Origin: a virus
IMG/VR virus record: IMGVR_UViG_3300037240_000024
Span: 152 to 64,151 of that record
Length of the DNA: 64,000 bases
Strand: one strand, 5' to 3'
In this document: one piece after another, positions 5,552-31,218 of the stretch
Layout of the letters: each line of letters begins with the position of its first letter
Position numbering within the stretch: position 1 is the stretch's first letter
Notes under the pieces: model-generated
Databases searched by the model: none
Told to the model about the DNA's origin: nothing
Seen by the model: the letters and a program-made list of their open reading frames with translations, nothing else
Made by a program: the position numbers and the translations under genes

Positions 5552-6658
5552 ATGGCTGGTCTCAGCGGTTTCAGCGGCGTCGGTGTCGCCCTCACTCTCA
5601 AGGGTACACCGAACAACTTCATCGATCTGCCGCCCGGTCAGGTGCAGATGCTGTCGCCGGCCGGCGCGTATATGGTGCGTTGCGGTCTCTACTCTTCGAT
5701 TCAGCAGCTCGACCCGATCAGCGGCATCTGGCGCACGGTCGGCGGCGGCGTGAACGGCGGCGGCGCTGAATTCGTCATGTCGGACGGCGTCAACTATCGC
5801 GTCGCGAACCAGACGGGTTGCGCGGTCGGCGCTCTGCTCACCACGGCGGGTTCGGCCTACACCACTGCGCCGACGGTCACGGCCAGCGCGGGCGGCTCGA
5901 TCTGGAAGGCTTTTGTCGGCGGCGCGGTTTCGACGACCGTCACGATCTCCAACGCCGGCACGGGCTACACCTACCCGCCGATTGTCCAGTTCTCCGCCCC
6001 GGCGGCCGGCACGGGCATCCAGGCGACGGGCTACGCGACACTTTCGGGCTCGACGGTCGCTTCGGTTGTTGTCGTCGATCAGGGCGCCGGCTACGTCACG
6101 GCGCCGACGATCACGATCGTTCCCGATCCGCGCGAAGGCGTCAACGCCGTCTCGCAGGGCTACAACGCGACGGCGGTCTGCGTGCTCACGGGTTCCGGCA
6201 CGATCACGGGTCTCGTCTGCCTCGATCACGGCACGACGCTCACCGCCGTCCCGACGCTGTCCTTCTCGTCCGGCTCGGGCGCTGCGACGGCGATCATGTG
6301 CTGGTCGATCACGGCATTCGCGGTCGGCACGGCCGGCGCGGGTCTGTCCGGCGCCAACGCGGTCATCACCGCGATCGACATCCCGAGCACCACGGCGGCA
6401 GCCTATCTCAATCCGTCGACCCAGTACGGCACGGCGTCCTACAACTGGGGCCTCGTGCGCCAGCGCCCGGCCTATATCGTCGGCACCGTCACGGCCAACG
6501 CGATCACCGTGACCACACCGCGATATATCGACGGCGGCATCTATACGACCGCGCCGGTCGCGATTGTGCTCGCCAACGGTTCGGTCGTCACTACGGCTCC
6601 GGTCGTCACCGTTTCGATGGGCGGCCTGAACGATCGCGCCTACGTGATGCAGCTCTGA
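5552..6658 (+). CDS. virion structural protein (decoration/fibre-like) with GxGYTxxPTV repeats
   Basis: Thr/Gly/Ala-rich beta repeats; paralog of next gene. Confidence 0.7.
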   Translation: MAGLSGFSGVGVALTLKGTPNNFIDLPPGQVQMLSPAGAYMVRCGLYSSIQQLDPISGIWRTVGGGVNGGGAEFVMSDGVNYRVANQTGCAVGALLTTAGSAYTTAPTVTASAGGSIWKAFVGGAVSTTVTISNAGTGYTYPPIVQFSAPAAGTGIQATGYATLSGSTVASVVVVDQGAGYVTAPTITIVPDPREGVNAVSQGYNATAVCVLTGSGTITGLVCLDHGTTLTAVPTLSFSSGSGAATAIMCWSITAFAVGTAGAGLSGANAVITAIDIPSTTAAAYLNPSTQYGTASYNWGLVRQRPAYIVGTVTANAITVTTPRYIDGGIYTTAPVAIVLANGSVVTTAPVVTVSMGGLNDRAYVMQL

Positions 6659-6670
6659 TCGGAGACGACG

Positions 6671-7753
6671 ATGCCGCTCTGGAACACCCGTAGCGCGGGT
6701 TCGCTGTCGGCGACAGCGAACCGCGTCACTCTCGCGCCGGGAGAGACGATGCTGCTCGGCCCCCAGGATGCCGTCTATCAGGTTCATCCAGGTTACTATT
6801 CTTGTGTTCAGTATTTCGACCCCGTCATGCAAGCGTGGACAAAAATTGGCGGCGGTTACGGAAATATTGGCGGCACACAACTGGTTTTCTCGGACGGCGT
6901 CAATTATCGGATCGCCAATCAGACTGGTGCGGCGGTGGGCGCGCTTCTGACCAACGGCGGCACGGGCTACACGTCCCCTCCGACGGTCACGGCTTCGGCG
7001 GGCGGTTCGATCTGGCGAGCGGTTATCGGCGGTGCGGTCTCGACTTCCGTCACGGTTACGAACGCCGGCCTCTCCTACACCTACCCGCCGATGGTGTTGT
7101 TCTCAGCCCCAGCTTTCGGCGGCGTGCAGGCGACGGGCTATGCCACGCTTTCGAGCAACACGGTGTCGACCGTCACGGTCACGAATCAGGGCGCCGGCTA
7201 TTCGCAGCCTCCGACCATCACGTTCGTCAACGACCCTCGCGAGGGTCTGAACAGCATCGCCTACGGCTATAATGCAGCGGCGGTCGCGACGACGACTGGG
7301 GCCGGCACGGTGACGGCGGTTCTTTGCGTCGACCACGGGCAGGGCGGTTTGACGACGCTTCCGACTCTGGCGTTTGCGGGTGGCGGCGGTTCGAGCGCAG
7401 CGGCGACGACGATCATGTGCTGGAGCATCACGGCCTATGCGGTGACGACGGCCGGCACGGGCTGGACGACCGCGCCGTATATCACGGCCTATGACAATTT
7501 TCCCTCGACCGCGCCGGCCTACACAAACTCGTCCACTCAGTCGGGCCTCGTCGCTACGGCGCCAGCACAGATTATCGGCGCTGTGACGGCGGGCGGCATC
7601 ACGGCAACGGGCCAGAATGTTCTCTTCGGTGGCATCTACACCTCGACGCCGACGATCGTCATGCAGACCTCCGGCATTTTGATTACCGCGACCGCCGCGC
7701 TTACCGCGACGATGGGCGGTCAGAACGCCTCGGTCTACATCCAGCAGATCTGA
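6671..7753 (+). CDS. virion structural protein, tandem paralog of 5552..6658
   Basis: Shared SDGVNYR(V/I)ANQTG.AVGALLT...PTVTASAGGSIW. Confidence 0.7.
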   Translation: MPLWNTRSAGSLSATANRVTLAPGETMLLGPQDAVYQVHPGYYSCVQYFDPVMQAWTKIGGGYGNIGGTQLVFSDGVNYRIANQTGAAVGALLTNGGTGYTSPPTVTASAGGSIWRAVIGGAVSTSVTVTNAGLSYTYPPMVLFSAPAFGGVQATGYATLSSNTVSTVTVTNQGAGYSQPPTITFVNDPREGLNSIAYGYNAAAVATTTGAGTVTAVLCVDHGQGGLTTLPTLAFAGGGGSSAAATTIMCWSITAYAVTTAGTGWTTAPYITAYDNFPSTAPAYTNSSTQSGLVATAPAQIIGAVTAGGITATGQNVLFGGIYTSTPTIVMQTSGILITATAALTATMGGQNASVYIQQI

Positions 7754-8977: not shown

Positions 8978-9528
8978 TGGCGAGCCTGTCGAACCCGATG
9001 GCCTATCCGCCGCCTTGGGCCGCTCCGCCTCAACCGGCAGCGACCTCTCAAGCGCCCGTTGTCGCACCGACAGCGGCTGCGCCGACTGCACCCGCTCAAG
9101 CTGCTCCGACGGCGCAAGCTCCGGTCGATCCGGCGCAGCAGGCTTTTCAGCGTAATAGCGCTTGGTTGAAGCCCGGTGAGAACAGTTACAATACGCAGTT
9201 AGACCCGTCGCAAGAATTGGCTTTTCGCGCTTGGGTTCAGAAGAACAAAGTACCTTTTGATTTTCAGCAGAAGCTAAACGACTACGACATGCGAGGGTTC
9301 TACAAAGCGATGGCGTCTGGCGACCCCAGAGCGAAAAATGCCGTGAACCCTAATGATGGTCGGCTGCACTACCCTGACTATTGGAAGACTCCGTACCATA
9401 ACTCGTTCTCCAATGAGAGTCAGTGGGCCGACCCCGCGAAGGCGCCGAGTTGGAATGAGAAGGACCAGTTGGTTCTTCCCGACGGAACTGTTGTGTTCGA
9501 TGAACGCGCTCAAAAAGGAGCGCAGTAA
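8977..9528 (+). CDS. hypothetical virion-associated protein
   Basis: Pro/Ala linker plus NTQL...ELAFRAW...DYDMRGFYK...HYPDYWKTPYH.SFS.ES motif, seen recurrently in phage virion proteins (from memory). Confidence 0.6.
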   Translation: MASLSNPMAYPPPWAAPPQPAATSQAPVVAPTAAAPTAPAQAAPTAQAPVDPAQQAFQRNSAWLKPGENSYNTQLDPSQELAFRAWVQKNKVPFDFQQKLNDYDMRGFYKAMASGDPRAKNAVNPNDGRLHYPDYWKTPYHNSFSNESQWADPAKAPSWNEKDQLVLPDGTVVFDERAQKGAQ

Positions 9529-12335
9529 TGGCCTCTCAGCCTAGAGATATGTCGGCTAAGGCCCAAGAAGCTATGGGGTTGCCCCCAGGGGCTAAATTCT
9601 ATTCGCCCTTCCCGTTCGGCGGCATGAACACGCAGGCGTCGCCGATCGCGATGCCGGACAACGAGTTCACCTGGATCGAGAACTGGCTGCGGCTCGGCGA
9701 CGGCAATATGCGGACGGCGTGGGACGTCGGAGCGCCGTTTTATTTCAACGGCTCCATCGTCAATTATTTCTTCTACACCATAGCGACGACCTACTACTGC
9801 ATCGTGTTCCTGACGAACGGGAACGCCCTCCAGATCAACACGACGACCAACATTGCGACGCCAATCAATCCGGCGTTGAAATTCTATCTGCCGTCGGCGC
9901 CGAAGAACCTTCCCTTCGCGAAGGCGTGGGGCACGCAATATCTTCTGATCTCGAACAACAATACGCCGAACGACTTCTGGGCGTGGGACGGGTCGATCCT
10001 CTATTTCGCCGGCAGCGCCGCGCCGAACAGCGTCAACATTTTGTCGGGCGGTTTCTCCTACACGACGGCTCCGACGCTCGCCGTGTTCGGGGGTGGCGGC
10101 TCGGGGATGCAGATCACGCCCGTCATCTCGGGCGGCCAGATCGTCGAGATGAACATCACGAATCCCGGCTCGGGCTACGAGATTGGCGACGTCGTGCAGA
10201 TCGCTTTCAGCGGTGGAGGATCGGACACGGCTCCGATCCTGACTGCGCAGCTTTCGTCAGGCAGCGTCTCGGGCGCGACGATCACGGCGCCCGGTGCAGG
10301 CTATACGACGGCTACCGTCTCGTTTTCCGGCGGCGGAGGCAGCGGCGCGGCGGCGACGGCCGCCGTCACCTCCGGCTCCGTCACGGCGATCACAATCACA
10401 AGTCCCGGCTTGGGCTATACATCCGCGCCGGTCATTTCGATCAGCGGCGGCGCCGGCGCGGCGGCGGTCGCCGTGCTGGCTCCGTCCGGCGTGGCGAGCG
10501 TGACGGTCGTCAATGGTGGCTCTGGCTTCACGTCGGTTCCGCTCATCACGTTCGTCGGCGGACAAGGCGCGGGAGCCACCGGCATTGCTGTGTTGAGCCC
10601 GACATCCGTCGCTGCGGTGAATATGACGGCGGGAGGGTCTGGTTACACGTCGGCCCCGACTGTTGCTTTCGTAGGCGGCCAGACTGTTTCTGTCCCGACA
10701 GCCGTTGCGACGGTCGGAGCCAACGTGGTCGGGACCGCTGTCACCTCTTACACGGTCGTCAACCCCGGCGCGGGCTATACCTCCGTTCCGACGATCACGG
10801 TGTCTGGTGGCGGAGGGTCCGGCGCGACGGCGATCGCCACGATGAGCGGCGGCGTCATAACAGCCGTCACCCCCATCGCGAACGGAACCGGCTACACAAG
10901 CACACCAGCGGTAGCGGTTTCTGGCGGCGGCAGTGCGGGCGTGGCGGCGACTGCCGTCGCCAACTTAGTTGGCGACCAGGTTGGATCGGTGACGATCACC
11001 AATGCGGGCGGAGAATACACCTCTCCGGTTGAAGTGACGTTTACGGGTGGCGGCGGGATCGGCGCGGGCGCCACGGTGCTGTTTGCGCCGACGTCGATCG
11101 CTCAGGTCGTCGTCTCCAGCACAGGCCAGTATTATACGACGGCTCCGACGGTCGAGGTTTCGGCAGGAGCCAACAAATCCGCCTACGCTACTGTGTCTCT
11201 TATGCCTTACGGTGTCAGCGGCTCGGCGATGGAGACCTATCTGTCTCGGCTGTGGATCGTCGATCCCGCGCCGAGCGTGACGTCGATCGTACCGCCGGGC
11301 GGCGAGTGGCAGGTCTCGGCTCCGGGGTCATTCACCGATTTCGCCACTTCCGACGGCGGCGTGCAGGCGCTCAATACGGATTCGTTTCTTCAGACGCGCT
11401 ACACCAACATCCATCAATCATCCGGCTATCTCTATTTCTTCGGAGACGGGTCGGTCAGCGTCGTCTCGAACGTCTCGACGTCGGGGACGCCTGCCGTCAC
11501 GGCCTACAACTATCAGAACGTCGATCCGCAGGCCGGCGCGGAATGGCGCGACACGCTTCAGGATTTCGGGCGTTCGTCGATCATCGCCAATGCGACTGGC
11601 GTCTACGGTCTCTATGGCGGCACGACGTCGAAGATCAGCCAGAAGCTCGACCAGCTTTTCACGCCGGCCTCGCAAGGCGGTCTGTTCGTGCCGCCGAGCG
11701 CAGGCGGGATCATTCCGACGTCGGCCATCGCGACGATTTTCAACATCAAGCACTATCTGTTGCTGCTGACGCTGCAAGACCCCGATCTCGGCACGAATCG
11801 GAACGTCATGCTGACGTGGAACGAGAAGGACTGGGTTGTCACCTCGCAGTCCGTTCCGATCACGTCGATCTCGACGCAGAAGATAAATTCGACCTATTAC
11901 GCGTTCGGGTCCGACGGGGTGAGCATCTATCCGCTGTTCGCCAAGGCGTCGGTGAAGCTGACGAAACGATTCGACACGAAGCAATATGGCGCGGATCGAA
12001 TGTTCATCCAGAAGCAGGGCAACGCTGTCTGGATGCAGGCGCAGGACAATTCGACGACATCGGCCGGCGTCTCGGGCACATTCACGTTGGTCACTTCGGG
12101 GATCGGTATTCAAAGCTCGTGGAATCCGAGCGGTCAGAGCCTGACGACCTCGACGGTGTTCAACATCCAGCCGGACTTCCCGGCGCCTTACCCGTATTGG
12201 CCGCTGTGGGGGACTTCGACAGGGGCTATCTATTTCGTGACGACGGCGCTGCGGTTCTCGACCACCGCGCCGGATTTCACGCTGGGCAACCTTGTGATAG
12301 GCTACGCCGACAAGGTGGCCTACTTCGGTCAATAG
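9528..12335 (+). CDS. tail tube/stabilisation protein (P22 gp10/T7 gp12-like) with inserted repeat array
   Basis: 935 aa; N-terminal FGGMNT...ENW motif; about 10 GxGYTxxP repeats in the middle; position before GNAT and ejection genes. Confidence 0.6.
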   Translation: MASQPRDMSAKAQEAMGLPPGAKFYSPFPFGGMNTQASPIAMPDNEFTWIENWLRLGDGNMRTAWDVGAPFYFNGSIVNYFFYTIATTYYCIVFLTNGNALQINTTTNIATPINPALKFYLPSAPKNLPFAKAWGTQYLLISNNNTPNDFWAWDGSILYFAGSAAPNSVNILSGGFSYTTAPTLAVFGGGGSGMQITPVISGGQIVEMNITNPGSGYEIGDVVQIAFSGGGSDTAPILTAQLSSGSVSGATITAPGAGYTTATVSFSGGGGSGAAATAAVTSGSVTAITITSPGLGYTSAPVISISGGAGAAAVAVLAPSGVASVTVVNGGSGFTSVPLITFVGGQGAGATGIAVLSPTSVAAVNMTAGGSGYTSAPTVAFVGGQTVSVPTAVATVGANVVGTAVTSYTVVNPGAGYTSVPTITVSGGGGSGATAIATMSGGVITAVTPIANGTGYTSTPAVAVSGGGSAGVAATAVANLVGDQVGSVTITNAGGEYTSPVEVTFTGGGGIGAGATVLFAPTSIAQVVVSSTGQYYTTAPTVEVSAGANKSAYATVSLMPYGVSGSAMETYLSRLWIVDPAPSVTSIVPPGGEWQVSAPGSFTDFATSDGGVQALNTDSFLQTRYTNIHQSSGYLYFFGDGSVSVVSNVSTSGTPAVTAYNYQNVDPQAGAEWRDTLQDFGRSSIIANATGVYGLYGGTTSKISQKLDQLFTPASQGGLFVPPSAGGIIPTSAIATIFNIKHYLLLLTLQDPDLGTNRNVMLTWNEKDWVVTSQSVPITSISTQKINSTYYAFGSDGVSIYPLFAKASVKLTKRFDTKQYGADRMFIQKQGNAVWMQAQDNSTTSAGVSGTFTLVTSGIGIQSSWNPSGQSLTTSTVFNIQPDFPAPYPYWPLWGTSTGAIYFVTTALRFSTTAPDFTLGNLVIGYADKVAYFGQ

Positions 12336-20544: not shown

Positions 20545-21186
20545 GTGTACATCCCCGGCACGAAAACACAGACGAACTCCGACCCATTCTATGACGCCTC
20601 GGGCACGATTACGACGGGCGGCACGCCGCAGCTTATCCGGCCGATGGTGCCGAGCTGCTCGCATTTCGTCATTCAGAACCTCTCGTCCGCGAATTCGATG
20701 TACGTTGAGTTTGGATCAGCGCGCGCCACCGCCGCGCTCTCCAGCGGGACGATCTCCGCGATTACTGTGACGAACGGCGGTTTCGGCTTCACCTACCCGC
20801 CCGTCGTGCGCTTCGCCGGTGGCGGTCATGCCGGGAACATGAAGTATCTCGGGCTTAATCAGCCGGGCGGCGACGGGCCGACCTCGACGCAAGTGAAGGG
20901 TCGAACGGCCATCGCGCACGCTGTCCTGACCTCCGGCGTCGTCACTTCGATCGTCATCGACGACCCCGGCGCCGGCTACGTGATCGCGCCCTATGTCTTT
21001 ATCGCCAACACGGGCCTCGACCCTTACGGCTGCGCCAATCCGTTCTTCGGCTCGGCGGTCTCCGGCATTCTGCTCGGCGCCGGCGGCGGCTCCTATTATT
21101 CGAACGGCACAGTCTGCACGACCGACCCCATCTCGATTTATTGCAGCGCCTCGGCGCAACCCTTCACGTTCAAGTGGATGGTCTAA
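20545..21186 (+). CDS. virion structural protein with GxGYxxxP repeats
   Basis: GGFGFTYPP and GAGYVIAP repeats; RBS AGGAG. Confidence 0.65.
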   Translation: MYIPGTKTQTNSDPFYDASGTITTGGTPQLIRPMVPSCSHFVIQNLSSANSMYVEFGSARATAALSSGTISAITVTNGGFGFTYPPVVRFAGGGHAGNMKYLGLNQPGGDGPTSTQVKGRTAIAHAVLTSGVVTSIVIDDPGAGYVIAPYVFIANTGLDPYGCANPFFGSAVSGILLGAGGGSYYSNGTVCTTDPISIYCSASAQPFTFKWMV

Positions 21187-21780
21187 ATGGCTGCTCCGGC
21201 GCTCACCAATTACGCGGACGGCGTCGGCGCGGTAAACGGCGACAACCTCAACACGTTCGTTCAAGGCGGCGTGCTGTTGGCGCAGCTTCAACTTTTCCCC
21301 GGCGCATGGAACGGCCAAGTCGTCTATCTCGGCGGTTACACCTCGACGGGTGACGGCGGTCAAGGTTTTTTCTGGTGGAACTCCACATCCACCGCGACGA
21401 GCAACGGGGTGACGGTCATCGTTCCGTACGGAACGGTCGGCTATGGGGCCTGGCTGCGTCTTAACGACAACTCCGCTGGGGTATCGACGTTTCGGTACGT
21501 CACCGCAGGAACGAGCGACGTAGCGCGTTCAGTGGACTCAACGATCGTTTGGAAATCCACGGTCACGTCGGGCAAAACGGAAGTGCTCCCAGCGGCGAAC
21601 ATCTTGACGGCGGGGACGACGATGACTGTGAAAGACGGGAATTACACGTCGGCGAGCTACCCGATCACGGTGACTTCGACGGCGAGCACGATAGACTCGA
21701 ATCCCTCGGACATAATTCAGCAGAACGGCGCGTCGCGTAGCTATCGCACGGATGGCGTGTCGAATTGGGTGATCGTATGA
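21187..21780 (+). CDS. tail-spike anchor-like protein (no signal peptide)
   Basis: GVGAVNGDNLNTF...GYTSTGDGGQGFFWW N-terminal module of the tail-spike head-binding type; C-terminal TLP...KD...IDS...TDGVSNW fibre-tip-like domain. Confidence 0.6.
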   Translation: MAAPALTNYADGVGAVNGDNLNTFVQGGVLLAQLQLFPGAWNGQVVYLGGYTSTGDGGQGFFWWNSTSTATSNGVTVIVPYGTVGYGAWLRLNDNSAGVSTFRYVTAGTSDVARSVDSTIVWKSTVTSGKTEVLPAANILTAGTTMTVKDGNYTSASYPITVTSTASTIDSNPSDIIQQNGASRSYRTDGVSNWVIV

Positions 21781-23240
21781 AGCCTGTCGCTAAAAATCTT
21801 GCGTTGGCCGCGCTTCTTTTGGCAGGAACATCTCTGTCGTCAATGGATTTCGCTCGCGCGGCGTTCGATCCGCTTGACCCGCAGGCGACGGACAGCATTC
21901 AGATCTCTCCAACATTCTGCCCGTTCGCGCAATTGACGGGCACGATACCGAACGACGCCTGCATTCAGAGCGCCATAAATTACGCTTGCTCCACGGCGAA
22001 CAGCCACACTGGAAACAACGCCGGAACGCTCATATTCACCAGGGCTAACTACTATATCAAATTCGGCGTTAACGTCCCCGCCAGTTGCGCCGGTCTTTAT
22101 TTCAAAGGTCAGGGCGCGGGAAATGGATACACGGCTAACGCCAACACTTACATTTTCTCGGACAATAATTGTACGGGACCCATACTTAATTTCTACTCCG
22201 ACGCCACACAGAATTATGTGTACGGTGGTGGAGTGAGAGACATTGCGTTTTACAACGCCCCCTTCAACGGTCTCCGCGACGGGAGCGTATCTTGCAAATA
22301 CCCGCTTATACAAGCGTCTTATGGCGAGTTCATGAATTTTGAAAACATCTATTCGTGGCTGGCTTATCAGCAAATAAAACTGGTAGGCGGCATCCACAGC
22401 AAGATTGATTTTATGTTCTTGGATCAAGTGCTCCAAGACAGTCCCGGCGCACTCGAATTTATGGGTACAGGCGCTTCTTCAAAGTCTAGCACGGCTCCGC
22501 ACACTCGGCAGGACGCCGTGCTTGTCCGAAAAGTATTCGGTGGCGGATCAGCCACTATCCAAGCCGGGCATAAACTCTTTACCGGAATTTGGTGGCACGC
22601 CTTTAGCGACACGCTGGAGTTACAAGACATCACTTTTGAGAACACAAACAACGTCATCAAGATCGACTGCACGGGTGGCGGCGCCGCTGACATATCGGCG
22701 TGTCCTGCGTTTTTGCAGGCGTTTGACATTCAGGGGGAGGGGGCAGGCGGAAATCTTTTCGACGCTCAGGATTTTCAACATCTGAGCATCACAGACTCCT
22801 ATTTCCATTGTTTTGAAGCCAGTCTCTACGGCGGTTGCAACGACGCCATGTTTTTGAGAAATGGTATTTTCTCTCAAACTTCCGGCGTCCAAATTAAAGG
22901 CGGTCAATTCGATTCGGGTCAACACGCTGGCATAGAGGCCGAAATACAGGGCTTAAATATCTCGGGAGCTTCGCTATTTAACAACAATTTGGGAAATAGC
23001 GGCGGAGCCGACATAGGCGTCAACACGCCAGGGGCGGGACATCTATCCGGTCAAATCAGCATAGCGAATAACTTCTTCTGCCTAAGTTCAGGAAACACGC
23101 TCAGCGAGGTGGCCGTTTTATTTTCTAACGGCTTGGATTACTTGCAAGCCACGCAGAATATGTTTGACGGATGCGGAAGCGGCGTTGTGAACAACTCCGG
23201 CGGAAGCCACGTCACTGTCACCCCGAACGTGGGCCCGTAA
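21777..23240 (+). CDS. pectin-lyase-like beta-helix protein (tail-spike/depolymerase-like) with Sec signal peptide
   Basis: NDACIQSAINYA cap motif then N/G/S-rich beta-helix; N-terminus MKPVAKNLALAALLLAGTSLSSMDFARA. Confidence 0.65.
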   Translation: MKPVAKNLALAALLLAGTSLSSMDFARAAFDPLDPQATDSIQISPTFCPFAQLTGTIPNDACIQSAINYACSTANSHTGNNAGTLIFTRANYYIKFGVNVPASCAGLYFKGQGAGNGYTANANTYIFSDNNCTGPILNFYSDATQNYVYGGGVRDIAFYNAPFNGLRDGSVSCKYPLIQASYGEFMNFENIYSWLAYQQIKLVGGIHSKIDFMFLDQVLQDSPGALEFMGTGASSKSSTAPHTRQDAVLVRKVFGGGSATIQAGHKLFTGIWWHAFSDTLELQDITFENTNNVIKIDCTGGGAADISACPAFLQAFDIQGEGAGGNLFDAQDFQHLSITDSYFHCFEASLYGGCNDAMFLRNGIFSQTSGVQIKGGQFDSGQHAGIEAEIQGLNISGASLFNNNLGNSGGADIGVNTPGAGHLSGQISIANNFFCLSSGNTLSEVAVLFSNGLDYLQATQNMFDGCGSGVVNNSGGSHVTVTPNVGP

Positions 23241-23243
23241 GCC

Positions 23244-23609
23244 ATGGCCAATCCGGCGCCTGCAAATTTTCAGAACGGCGTCGGCGCGGTCAGCGGCGAC
23301 AATCTCAACACGTTCCCGCAGGTGGTTTTCAATCTGGCGCAACTCCGAACTTTCACCGGCGTCGCCAGTTCGGTCGCCTTCGTTCTTGGAGCGGTGGCGC
23401 CGAACGACGGCGGCCAGTCTTTCTATTTCTATCAGTCGAGCGGTTCTTACGTGGACAATGGGACGTCGGTGATCGTTCCGTACTTTTCTTTGACGGGGGC
23501 GTGGATTCAGATCCAATTCTCTCTTAACGGCGCGGCCTACCCGACTTCTAATCCTGGCGCCGGGTCCGGTCTGATTTGGAATAATCAGGGGTTTCTATGC
23601 GTAGCCTAA
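23244..23609 (+). CDS. second tail-spike anchor-like protein, paralog of the 21187..21780 N-terminus
   Basis: GVGAVSGDNLNTF...PNDGGQSFYFY. Confidence 0.6.
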   Translation: MANPAPANFQNGVGAVSGDNLNTFPQVVFNLAQLRTFTGVASSVAFVLGAVAPNDGGQSFYFYQSSGSYVDNGTSVIVPYFSLTGAWIQIQFSLNGAAYPTSNPGAGSGLIWNNQGFLCVA

Positions 23610-25633
23610 AGAACGCCATTCTCTACGCGCCGCTTGTCGTGGTGTTGGCGTCAATCGCGCCGAAACCGGCGCTCGCCGCCGGCTCGACCTATCTGCCGTC
23701 GATTGGCTGCACAGGCTACCCGTACGGCCACACGACCAGTAATCCGATCACCTGCTCCCCGACGATCCCTTCGGGGGATCTGGGGCCGGGGGCGGCGGCG
23801 ACAAATCTTGGCGTAAATCAAGTGTCTCCGACCGAACCGCGATACGGTGGGGTTTGCGACGGCAGCACGGTTGACACGGCGGCTTTCGACGCCGCCATCA
23901 CGGCCTCTACGCTTATTGTCCTTCCGGCCGGTAAAACCTGCCTCGTGGGGAACCTCGTTCTCACCAGTCGGCAGGTTCTGGATTGCAACAATTCCTTGCT
24001 CAACGCCGCGCCCGGCGCGCTGTGGATAGTGAAGAAAACAGGTTTTGCGTCTCAGATCAGAAACTGCCTTTTTAGCGATCCGACTTTGATTACGATGCAG
24101 ACGACGACGCTTTCGTCGGGCGTCGCGTCGGGCGTCAACATCCTCCCTGTCGTGAGCGCGGCGACGTTCCAAGCCAACATGATCGCCACGGTGCAGCTCG
24201 CCAGTGGAGCTTACTGGACGAGCAAGGTTACTTCCGTGAATGTGGGCGGCAATACGATCACTTTGGCGGACCCGATCCCTTGGACCGTGACAGCCATCGC
24301 GGTCGGCAGTGGCGGGACAGGCTGGGGTAGTGACGAAGCGGTGTTGTTGGGTGTGGATGGTGCTCCGACGACGCTAGGTTTGACGACTACAGCAGGGGCG
24401 ATAACGGGTGTGACGATCGATGCTCCGGGGCTCTACCAGTTGAATCCCGGCTCTCCGCTCGCGCCTTTCGATCCAAAAGCACCGGCCGCCTTCGGGGCGA
24501 GCCTCAACGTCACTTATGGCGGCGCGCTTGCCGGCGCGTTTGTGGACGCGGCTTTTGGTGTAGTGACCGACGATCAGGCCAATGGCGGGACGATCGAGAA
24601 CGTCACCATCGGCGAAGCCCCAGTCGGGCTTGAGGTACTTGCCTCGATCGGAACGACTACGGAAGAAAACATCCGGAGTTTTAACGTAAACGCTGCAATC
24701 TTGACCGCTTTTGCCAAATTGTCAGGGGTTAACAACACGGTTTTCGACAAACTTATCGGCACCGGCTTCACGCATCACGCATCGGCTTACGGCGCAACTG
24801 GACTTTATATTGAAGGTGATAGTCGCACCTACGCCAATGGTGGCAATACTTACGATTTTTGGACACTCGGGTTTGAAACCGGGATGTTGGATATGAACGG
24901 CCAGCTAGATCACATTCTGCACGGGATCGTAGATACGAACAGAAACTACGGAATGGTGTGCATCGGCTGTCAGTACACCGATTTCGTACACTTATTCGCT
25001 TCTTTCACCGGGCCAAACGCCATTCCATCTCTTGGTTCTACGGCCGGCAAAGGCATAGGCGCATACTTTGGTAGTGGCGCAGTCAATCCGGCGATTAACG
25101 ATTCAGTCACTAAGCTCACCTCATCTAATAATGTCTCAGACCTGCACTTCGGAGATGGTGCGGGGAGCGTGAAGATCGGCGAGCCGTGGGGGCCATCCAA
25201 GATTATGACCACGCCGAATACCGGGTCGATTTCGCTCTACTCGTCCACGGCGATCGTGGCGTTCTCGACTTTGCAGGTTGGCGGCCTGACGACGCCTCGC
25301 TATTTGGCTCCCGGCAACATCTCTGCGACACAAACAGTGTCGGCGCTCGCCGGGGTTTACGGAATGATTTCCGGTGGCTCGATCAGAAGCTCAATCGCGC
25401 CGGGAGTGGACACATACACGGCCATCATCTACACGAACCAATGGAGTGGAAGCGCCTATCTGGGCTGGAATTCTGTCGGCTCTTGCACCTGGACGAGCAC
25501 AGCGACGGGGTGTAACATCAACAACTCGGGCGTGGTGATCGCGCCACTGGATCAGATCGATCTTGGGTTAGCGACGTCAGGTGCGACGTTTGTCGCTAAT
25601 CAGACGATTACAGCGCAAGTGACGGGGCAGTGA
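23597..25633 (+). CDS. beta-helix tail-spike-like protein with Sec signal peptide
   Basis: GGVCDGSTVDTAAFDAAI pectate_lyase_3-like cap; N-terminus MRSLKNAILYAPLVVVLASIAPKPALA. Confidence 0.65.
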   Translation: MRSLKNAILYAPLVVVLASIAPKPALAAGSTYLPSIGCTGYPYGHTTSNPITCSPTIPSGDLGPGAAATNLGVNQVSPTEPRYGGVCDGSTVDTAAFDAAITASTLIVLPAGKTCLVGNLVLTSRQVLDCNNSLLNAAPGALWIVKKTGFASQIRNCLFSDPTLITMQTTTLSSGVASGVNILPVVSAATFQANMIATVQLASGAYWTSKVTSVNVGGNTITLADPIPWTVTAIAVGSGGTGWGSDEAVLLGVDGAPTTLGLTTTAGAITGVTIDAPGLYQLNPGSPLAPFDPKAPAAFGASLNVTYGGALAGAFVDAAFGVVTDDQANGGTIENVTIGEAPVGLEVLASIGTTTEENIRSFNVNAAILTAFAKLSGVNNTVFDKLIGTGFTHHASAYGATGLYIEGDSRTYANGGNTYDFWTLGFETGMLDMNGQLDHILHGIVDTNRNYGMVCIGCQYTDFVHLFASFTGPNAIPSLGSTAGKGIGAYFGSGAVNPAINDSVTKLTSSNNVSDLHFGDGAGSVKIGEPWGPSKIMTTPNTGSISLYSSTAIVAFSTLQVGGLTTPRYLAPGNISATQTVSALAGVYGMISGGSIRSSIAPGVDTYTAIIYTNQWSGSAYLGWNSVGSCTWTSTATGCNINNSGVVIAPLDQIDLGLATSGATFVANQTITAQVTGQ

Positions 25634-25645: not shown

Positions 25646-25993
25646 GTGCTGAAATCCGTTTTGATCGTTTTGCTTTTGTCTTGCGCGCCCGCGCAGGCGC
25701 AGTACTTTCCATGCCCCTCCTTCACGGCCGGTTGGGCGGTCAGCGGGCCAGTGCCGATCACGTCGGTCGCCTATGACCAGCAGACGCAGATCCTGTCGGT
25801 CGTCTGGTACGCCACGCAGCCGACGCAGTACTATCCGGTGCCGCTCAGCGTCATGCAGGCGTTTAATGGTTCCCACAATCTTCTCGCCACTTTCAACGCC
25901 TACGTCTCGGGACGCTATCATCCGATCTGGCTTCAGGAGAAGTCGAACTGCCCGGTCCTTCAGGATGGAGGGGGTTACATATGGGTCGACTGA
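25646..25993 (+). CDS. KTSC-domain-like protein with signal peptide
   Basis: ITSVAYDQQTQILSVVW...YYPVP...F...FNAYVSGRY matches the KTSC pattern; N-terminus MLKSVLIVLLLSCAPAQA. Confidence 0.6.
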   Translation: MLKSVLIVLLLSCAPAQAQYFPCPSFTAGWAVSGPVPITSVAYDQQTQILSVVWYATQPTQYYPVPLSVMQAFNGSHNLLATFNAYVSGRYHPIWLQEKSNCPVLQDGGGYIWVD

Positions 25994-30351: not shown

Positions 30352-31218
30352 ATGACAATCGCAATGCCGCGCGTCCTGCAAACACCGACTTCGGCATACT
30401 CGCCGACGCCGATCTCGCACGACGTTTTCTTCGTCCACATCTCCGAAGGCGAGTCAGCGGGTGGCGTCGCGTGGCTGTGCAGCGGCAAGGTGCAGGCCAG
30501 CGTCCATCTGTTCATGAACGAGGACGGAACGCTGGTTTATCAGCTTGTCCCGCTCAATTTCAAAGCCTGGGCCGAGTGCGCGTTCAATGCTAGAGGTCCG
30601 TCGATGGAAATACCCGGCGTTACCGCTGACGGTATCCCCGATGCGCGCTGGAGGGCGGCGGCGCTGATCGTGGCCCGAGTCTGTCGAGCCTATGCCATCC
30701 CTCCGGTTTGGGCGCGCGGAGGCCAAGGGCGCGGCATTGCGCAACATCATGACCTCGGCGCGGCTGGCGGCGGCCACGTCGATTGCAGTCCGGTCGGATC
30801 GCCCGTGTGGCTCACCTTTATCGGCTACGTCAAAGCGGCCTATGACGCTTTCGGCGACGGCCCCCTGCCACCGTTCGCGTTGCACGGCCTGCCGGGGCCT
30901 TCGGAGGTCGTCGCGCCGCCGTTCGTCCCGCCCGAGCCGAGCCACAATGGCGCGGCTCGCAGCGAGCCGGGCGACGTCATCGCGCACGAGACGAACAGCG
31001 GCTACGCGGCGCACTCGATTGCGGCGTTGCAGGCCGACCTCAACAAGCTCGGCTACACGGATGATGCGGGCAATGAACTCGACATCGACGGCGGCATGGG
31101 CGGCTTGACGACGCAGGCGCTCAAGAAAGCCCAGGCGGCGCTCGGCGTCGGCGTGGACGGGCTGATCGGGCCGGCGTCGTGGGCGGCTATTGAGACGGCG
31201 CTGGCGAAGAAGCCATGA
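30352..31218 (+). CDS. endolysin: N-acetylmuramoyl-L-alanine amidase + peptidoglycan-binding domain
   Basis: FFVHISEG...ASVH...MEI...QHHD...HVDC amidase residues; C-terminal LQADLNKLGY...IDG..G.LT..ALKKAQ...VDG.IGP. Confidence 0.8.
   Translation: MTIAMPRVLQTPTSAYSPTPISHDVFFVHISEGESAGGVAWLCSGKVQASVHLFMNEDGTLVYQLVPLNFKAWAECAFNARGPSMEIPGVTADGIPDARWRAAALIVARVCRAYAIPPVWARGGQGRGIAQHHDLGAAGGGHVDCSPVGSPVWLTFIGYVKAAYDAFGDGPLPPFALHGLPGPSEVVAPPFVPPEPSHNGAARSEPGDVIAHETNSGYAAHSIAALQADLNKLGYTDDAGNELDIDGGMGGLTTQALKKAQAALGVGVDGLIGPASWAAIETALAKKP

Follow-up and report, generated by a model that had tools for sequence, protein, structure and literature searches.

Short leaderless adaptors and leader-bearing spikes as a candidate anchor-and-branch receptor-binding system in a phage genome of IMG/VR

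Introduction

Branched, or anchor-and-branch, receptor-binding complexes are known from Klebsiella phages of the KP32 type. The described systems closest to the locus treated here are those of phage CBA120, with its tailspikes TSP1-4, and of phage G7C, with gp66 and gp63.1, in which one protein is fixed to the tail and the other spikes are docked on it by their N-termini (PMC8825819). In TSP4 the docking sites are the domains XD2 and XD3; domain XD1 is regarded by the authors of that work as a spacer where other domains flank it, and some of its relatives bind glycans (PMC8825819). The locus lies in a 64,000-nucleotide (nt) stretch of viral DNA, the window, which corresponds to positions 152 to 64,151 of IMG/VR record IMGVR_UViG_3300037240_000024. 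Between positions 21187 and 25633 of the window, two short leaderless genes, encoding proteins of 197 and 121 amino acids (aa) that are called adaptors 1 and 2 here, are each followed by an overlapping gene whose product, of 487 and 678 aa, respectively, begins with a predicted signal peptide. These two pairs are interpreted, with a probability of about 0.55, as a receptor-binding system of the anchor-and-branch type whose anchors and spikes are encoded by different genes, a Sec signal peptide being present on the spikes alone.

The Adaptors and Their Shared Module

Over residues 1-92, the two adaptors are identical at 42 of 92 positions (46%; BLASTP E 2e-21). The first-pass annotation of the window, made from the letters alone, had described an N-terminal module common to both short genes, and the alignment bears this out, including the motifs that it quoted. 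The genome holds exactly two copies of the module, one in each adaptor. Adaptor 1, whose AlphaFold2 model has a predicted local distance difference test score (pLDDT) of 87.8, consists of a conserved N-terminal peptide (residues 1-25), a Phage_tail_beta module (residues 26-95) and a β-sandwich of the XD1/T4 gp9 type (residues 96-197). In adaptor 2 the module is followed by just 29 residues, a tail whose motif is conserved in the short adaptors P0004 and P0005. Both genes are closely joined to what follows: the ATG at 21777 that starts the 487-aa gene overlaps the adaptor 1 gene by 4 nt (ATGA), the ATG at 23597 that starts the 678-aa gene lies in a 13-nt overlap with the adaptor 2 gene, and a Shine-Dalgarno-like purine run is found upstream of each. 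These overlaps, and the leaders on both downstream products, are as they were first described.

The module belongs to the Pfam family PF27114 (Phage_tail_beta), which, according to the precomputed matches in the protein collection, is carried by the 197-aa protein's own cluster and by all 26 of its 26 sequence relatives; the family's share in the ESM Atlas cluster is 84%. A family profile built from 34 members matches 6560 cluster representatives at E <= 0.001. Among the best 150 of these 6560 matches, 35 are no longer than 250 aa and the others span 270 to 3055 aa, with the module at residue 1 in nearly all, so that about three quarters of the relatives appear to be continuous spikes and about a quarter short proteins. 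In the fused relatives the module is followed by PF12708 (pectate-lyase-type) or Peptidase_S74 domains, and a comparison of the profile with the PDB returned the solved tailspike 6c72 (E 1.6e-6). Had the homologues always been fused, the split would have looked like an error of assembly. This is not what the family presents: short stand-alone forms are common and conserved, and since they recur in independent assemblies, the split is not an assembly error.

The comparison of the anchor with tail-spike domains that had been called for gave matches to solved tailspikes. Residues 26-94 of adaptor 1 match Fri1 gp49 (residues 206-272, Z 10.9) and CBA120 TSP2 (residues 265-330, Z 10.8, 32% identity), and the same sandwich is found in Depo32, AM24 and the bacterial protein WceF (residues 168-230, Z 9.8), where it was named the neck domain (PMC7949094). 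Overall, the matches have Z scores of 9-11 and root-mean-square deviations (rmsd) of 1.6-1.9 Å over about 65 residues at 25-32% identity. Together with the PF12708 and Peptidase_S74 relatives and 6c72, these values establish homology of the module to the N-terminal region of continuous spikes. The accompanying claim, that the module is their virion-binding head, does not follow. In the solved proteins the sandwich sits between the particle-binding part and the β-helix, so the module is not itself a known virion-binding head. In the phage group studied here the sandwich is preceded by no more than about 25 residues, conserved but modelled with low confidence, and we therefore infer that the tail-binding element must be inside the ~95 N-terminal residues.

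Beyond the module, residues 96-197 of adaptor 1 resemble residues 74-175 of CBA120 TSP4 (Z 13.4, rmsd 1.9 Å over 97 residues) and also match T4 gp9, CpaA and StcE, which makes this C-terminal domain an XD1 fold. It was the only domain of TSP4's set matched in the fold search with adaptor 1; XD2 and XD3 were not among the listed matches. Because the XD1 domain is terminal in adaptor 1, its distal face is free, and the modelled domain could offer a docking platform, a role that is unproven.

The Leader-Bearing Proteins

Five genes between 21777 and 30308, the two introduced above and the three that follow them (Table 1), encode products that start with a positive n-region, a hydrophobic core of 10-15 residues and a cleavage site of the A-x-A type. 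The criteria for Sec export and signal peptidase I cleavage were a positive n-region, an h-region of 7-15 residues and small residues at -3 and -1, applied both by eye and with a rule-based scan. Leaders of this description are found on 33 curated proteins, the five of the window and 28 relatives, and proteins with leaders are encoded in the tail blocks of at least 15 related contigs. Among the window's long plus-strand open reading frames (ORFs), the scan flagged four of the five genes (the 115-aa KTSC protein is shorter than its length cut-off) and one other, an internal-start artefact.

Three properties of these proteins suggest that they are really exported. The first is drift of the leader beside a fixed mature start: in the orthologue of the 487-aa protein in contig L120, aligned by eye from the printed sequences, 18 of 28 leader residues are identical while the mature N-terminus is unchanged over about 47 printed residues. 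The second is the parity of mature cysteines, whose number is even in 28 of the 33 curated proteins, odd in 4 and zero in 1 (binomial p 1e-5), as against 77 even and 97 odd counts among the other ORFs of the same loci (Fisher p 3e-6). The third is cysteine density, which at 1.44% is roughly double the 0.79% found in fused spikes without leaders. The first mature residue is Gln at 21 of the 33 predicted cleavage sites. A Gln-at-+1 rule has been described for Bacteroidota, which this pattern resembles despite the alphaproteobacterial type of the regulators in this phage.

The first-pass annotation took both downstream products for β-helix proteins, and here the two differ. In the 678-aa protein, a conserved mature peptide of about 30 residues (23678-23767) precedes a β-helix-like body that begins near residue 83. 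Its ESM Atlas model aligns with Pect-lyase and Beta_helix clusters at TM values of 0.5-0.7 by row, and one pectate-lyase start motif matches the fused relative P0019 (E 2e-4); the evidence for the predicted fold is moderate. For the 487-aa protein the fold is weakly indicated by Atlas language-model similarity to NosD, Pect-lyase and Beta_helix clusters (0.96-0.97), and its single-sequence fold has a pLDDT of 34. Searches with the spikes in Pfam, PHROGs and NCBIfam, and by phmmer against the PDB, gave no match, and a scan of viral contigs with the 487-aa protein found no relative. The empty Pfam, PHROGs and NCBIfam results explain why the presumed receptor-binding proteins of such phages escape annotation pipelines.

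Conserved Ends on Exchangeable Bodies

A comparison with related contigs shows how adaptors and spikes are combined. The adaptors can be typed by their C-termini, with type D for the 197-aa form, type A for the 121-aa form, and types B and E for others found in relatives. Giving each cassette as the adaptor type and the length of the downstream protein in aa, the window carries D + 487 and A + 678; L120 carries D + 487 and E + 739; L028 carries A + 677 and E + 403; L029 carries A + 454, followed by a fused spike; and L005, L038 and L109 carry B + 393, B + 714 and B + 352, respectively. For at least three types of adaptor C-terminus (A, B and E), each type is accompanied by one mature N-terminal peptide on bodies of differing length. 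In type A, with four bodies of 454-958 aa, mature residues 1-30 are 47-68% identical, as against 25-28% elsewhere and 22-48% in the leader. In an anchor-and-branch system the partner spikes are expected to have one docking segment, conserved at the N-terminus, on bodies that can be exchanged, and this is the pattern of type A and likewise of types B and E. Adaptor and spike thus appear to move between phages as cassettes. The modular adaptor system proposed at first pass survives in this form, with adaptor and leader-bearing spike travelling together and their ends co-varying. When metagenomes were scanned with the docking peptide, 20 pattern matches came up, none of which was confirmed.

There is also a leaderless parallel. 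At least seven related contigs have 213-aa adaptors that precede proteins of 550-667 aa with one shared N-terminus. These pairs are located at about 5001-7600 of L040, L044, L046, L052, L053, L055 and L056, where the adaptors end in VGQLYRNGSVVQVRV and the partners start with MSIPRNLALFAENITSGG. They show that adaptor plus partner is the ground plan and that the leader is an addition to it.

A Predicted Joint in Pair 2

The co-varying ends of pair 2 meet in a predicted complex. Adaptor 2 and mature residues 1-73 of the 678-aa protein were modelled as trimer on trimer alongside three controls, and the pair scored 0.76, the best control 0.03. The score mark was calibrated on 80 solved complexes, of which 58 reach it, and on 110 mismatched pairs, of which 2 do, a calibration that holds only roughly here because custom alignments and trimers differ from the calibration set. 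At least 97% of contacts agree between runs, and the pLDDT of the partner is at least 64. The predicted interface joins adaptor 2 residues 103-121 (23550-23606) to mature spike residues 1-8, 20 and 23, exactly the two segments that co-vary, namely the adaptor tail and the mature N-terminus. The model supports binding of adaptor 2 to the mature N-terminus of the 678-aa spike but does not show it. A prediction of this kind, anchor trimer with downstream protein, had been named as a check, and pair 2 passes it with controls.

Pair 1 (197 + 487 aa) is likely to have the same arrangement, but its case is the weaker one. The pairing of anchor and downstream protein proposed at first pass is backed by the complex prediction for pair 2; for pair 1 it is not obligate, since in one relative a gene of the 197-aa type stands immediately before one of the 121-aa type and the 487-aa gene is missing.

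A Model and Its Alternatives

In the proposed model, the N-terminal ~95 residues of the adaptors, comprising the 25-residue peptide and the Phage_tail_beta sandwich, would seat the 197- and 121-aa proteins on the tail, the same N-terminus being used by relatives on their continuous spikes. The downstream proteins would be translated by coupling to the adaptor gene, exported by Sec, freed of their leaders and folded with disulfide bonds outside the cytoplasm. In pair 2, the new N-terminus, the conserved peptide of ~30 residues, would dock as a trimer on the C-terminal 19 residues of the adaptor trimer. Particle-bound adaptors may then meet the spikes only once the holin opens the inner membrane at lysis, the most conjectural step of all. 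A more specific version, which we put forward tentatively and hold with distinctly less assurance than the general one, sees a two-compartment assembly gated by signal peptidase: particles would carry adaptors only, periplasmic disulfide-bonded spikes would dock at the holin breach, solely by way of the N-terminus that leader cleavage exposes, and the cassettes would serve as exchangeable host-range modules.

Several points weigh against this interpretation. Tailed-phage particles are, by the textbook account, built wholly in the cytoplasm, and exported parts would therefore need a late joining step, which is unproven. Export and cleavage in this phage group are predictions from sequence features and presence in the particle is a conjecture, and even cysteine counts are favoured in leaderless fused spikes as well (17 of 25). 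Leader-bearing proteins without an upstream adaptor occur in L003, L006 and L007 and in the window at 25981 and 28572, some of them directly behind the tail gene or a KTSC protein, so adaptors are not required in general. The relative that lacks the 487-aa gene between its two adaptor types belongs here too. The co-variation of ends could come partly from simple linkage of adjacent DNA, and the complex prediction for pair 2 used a shallow custom alignment (4 rows for the partner) and trimers. Finally, adaptor 1 ends in the very fold that the TSP4 authors consider a spacer (PMC8825819).

The alternative that survives best, though we judge it unlikely, treats the leader-bearing proteins as enzymes that are exported in free form and are never on the particle, and the short proteins as mini-fibres complete in themselves or as decorations of the tail. 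Such enzymes could be polysaccharide depolymerases stripping the infected cell of its own receptor to block superinfection or to release progeny. Periplasmic enzymes would fit the export signals and the paired cysteines, and the bacterial tailspike-like WceF is both exported and equipped with the same sandwich fold (PMC7949094); yet both tail-attachment modules would then lack a spike-sized receptor-binding protein. Module-only proteins of 91-136 aa, followed by a tail gene, do exist and would qualify as mini-fibres, as would an adaptor 1 whose XD1 fold has glycan-binding relatives (PMC8825819), whereas the 121-aa protein has just those 29 residues past its module. The leader-bearing genes that stand without an adaptor also suit free enzymes. 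Against this stand the co-variation and predicted binding of adaptor tail and mature spike N-terminus, and the particles of phage phi10:1, where leader-bearing proteins are annotated as structural proteins detected by tandem mass spectrometry (MS/MS).

Somewhat less probable again is that the hydrophobic N-termini are not used for export, the adaptor capturing its spike co-translationally in a cytoplasmic assembly and the leader being retained or acting on surplus protein only. The tight translational coupling implied by the gene overlaps and the existence of leaderless adaptor-plus-partner pairs of the same architecture would agree with this, as would the textbook view of assembly. However, the leaders drift in sequence and nevertheless retain all features of a cleavable signal, the even cysteine counts and doubled cysteine density point to oxidative folding, and the predicted interface involves the residues that open the mature chain, beside the cleavage site. 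An artefactual split, or a programmed frameshift producing one continuous spike, is rejected as highly improbable: both downstream frames are indeed -1 relative to the adaptor frames, but a slippery heptamer was sought at both junctions and neither has one, a fused product would hide the signal peptide inside the protein, and the identical split is seen in independent assemblies from several studies.

If the spikes do mature outside the cytoplasm and are added to the particle late, these phages would be an exception to the wholly cytoplasmic building of tailed phages, and one that would be widespread among soil phages. The split between leaderless adaptor and leader-bearing spike would provide a concrete joint, made of a 19-residue tail and a new N-terminus of 8-30 residues, and the adaptor and spike pairs would define small, portable host-range cassettes.

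Genome Setting and Neighbouring Genes

The IMG/VR record, from an uncultured phage of soil, has 64,293 bp and is rated 100% complete; the window covers nearly all of it. Its genes include those for an HK97-type capsid protein, a terminase, a polymerase of family A, a primase-helicase and a regulator of the GcrA type, the last of which points to an alphaproteobacterial host. The best relative of the capsid protein in the cultured-phage collection has 36% identity, DNA and protein searches of that collection with the region gave no match, and no prophage copies were found in the genome contigs scanned. The adaptor and spike region is placed in the late block, between the gene for a 213-aa tail protein and the endolysin gene (Table 1). 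Orthologues of the tail protein adjoin module-bearing or leader-bearing genes, directly upstream of them, in L003-L007, L028 and L029. A repeated domain of ~70 residues is common to this gene and three other virion genes of the window (5552-6658, 6671-7753 and 9528-12335) and matches the giant "virion structural protein" families phrog_701 and phrog_460.

Table 1. Features of the late block around the two adaptors (coordinates are those of the window)
Feature	Position	Strand	Remarks
213-aa conserved tail protein	20545..21186	+	Upstream of the receptor-binding cassette in all relatives; weak PHROG matches to virion structural repeats
Adaptor 1, 197 aa, leaderless	21187..21780	+	Own protein cluster carries PF27114; AlphaFold2 model
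Leader-bearing protein 1, 487 aa	21777..23240	+	Predicted signal peptide 1-28 (21777-21860), site ARA|A; 12 mature Cys
Adaptor 2, 121 aa, leaderless	23244..23609	+	Module and 29-residue C-terminal tail; family profile match E 5e-38
Leader-bearing spike 2, 678 aa	23597..25633	+	Predicted signal peptide 1-27 (23597-23677); 10 Cys
KTSC protein, 115 aa, leader-bearing	25646-25993	+	Signal-peptide features; 2 mature Cys
Leader-bearing protein, 859 aa	25981-28560	+	Signal-peptide features; 16 mature Cys
Gly-rich leader-bearing protein, 578 aa	28572-30308	+	Signal-peptide features; 10 mature Cys
Endolysin, leaderless, end of late block	30352..31218	+	Amidase_2 and PG_binding_1 (Pfam E 9e-10 and 2.5e-9)

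Downstream of the two adaptor cassettes there is what looks like a second conserved pair. A leader-bearing KTSC protein of the 115-aa type, with 2 mature cysteines, always precedes and overlaps a large leader-bearing protein, in the window as well as in L029 (3804-6037) and L003 (7460-9930). The large proteins have the conserved mature N-terminus QQ.PSTVT.MPFASTPL.GSELLY.VQ.G on bodies of 633-859 aa, and both partners would, by their predicted leaders, be exported. The 578-aa protein that follows has a long Gly-rich C-terminal half and the end ...CVEIEEFF. Its Gly-rich body resembles those of the fused relatives P0012 and P0024, but a relation to them was dropped, as BLASTP gave no significant match, possibly through low complexity.

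Comparison with Known Systems

The solved spikes Fri1 gp49 (6c72), CBA120 TSP2 (6w4q) and Klebsiella Depo32 have the same sandwich before the β-helix, and most relatives of the module family are likewise continuous. These spikes have a separate particle-binding domain N-terminal to the sandwich; in the adaptors, about 25 residues take that place and the body is encoded by a gene of its own. Pantoea stewartii WceF is a trimeric tailspike-like glycanase with an export signal and has the module fold in its neck domain (PMC7949094), but it is a single polypeptide with a Tat signal and a cellular enzyme rather than a phage part.

Signal peptides on tail-end structural proteins have a counterpart in the cultured Cellulophaga phage phi10:1 (KC821618). 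Its gp091-gp094 have classical leaders and are entered in the record as structural proteins on the strength of MS/MS of particles. At least one cultured phage is therefore on record with leader-bearing tail-end proteins in its particles. The likeness is one of leaders and annotation: phi10:1 belongs to another phage family and infects another host phylum, and from this phage neither a docking peptide nor an adaptor without leader is known. In the phi10:1 locus (L117, KC821618 41847-47391), the next gene, encoding the pectate lyase gp095, also begins with a hydrophobic leader-like segment. No discussion of the gp091-gp094 leaders was found in the literature, and no description of signal peptides on phage fibres or spikes, although the coverage was incomplete and this is a weak sign of novelty.

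The comparison with the complexes of CBA120 and G7C is the closest. As in those phages, one protein would be fixed to the tail and spikes docked on it by their N-termini, the docking ends are conserved while the bodies are swapped, and a domain of adaptor 1 has the XD1 fold of TSP4 and T4 gp9. The anchors of the present locus, in contrast, are tiny stand-alone proteins without an enzymatic body, and the predicted docking site of pair 2 is a 19-residue tail. Sec leaders are present on the spikes that would dock, and leader-bearing branches are reported in none of the described systems. The present locus contributes the leaderless adaptor, the predicted docking peptide at the mature N-terminus, and the exchange of both as a cassette.

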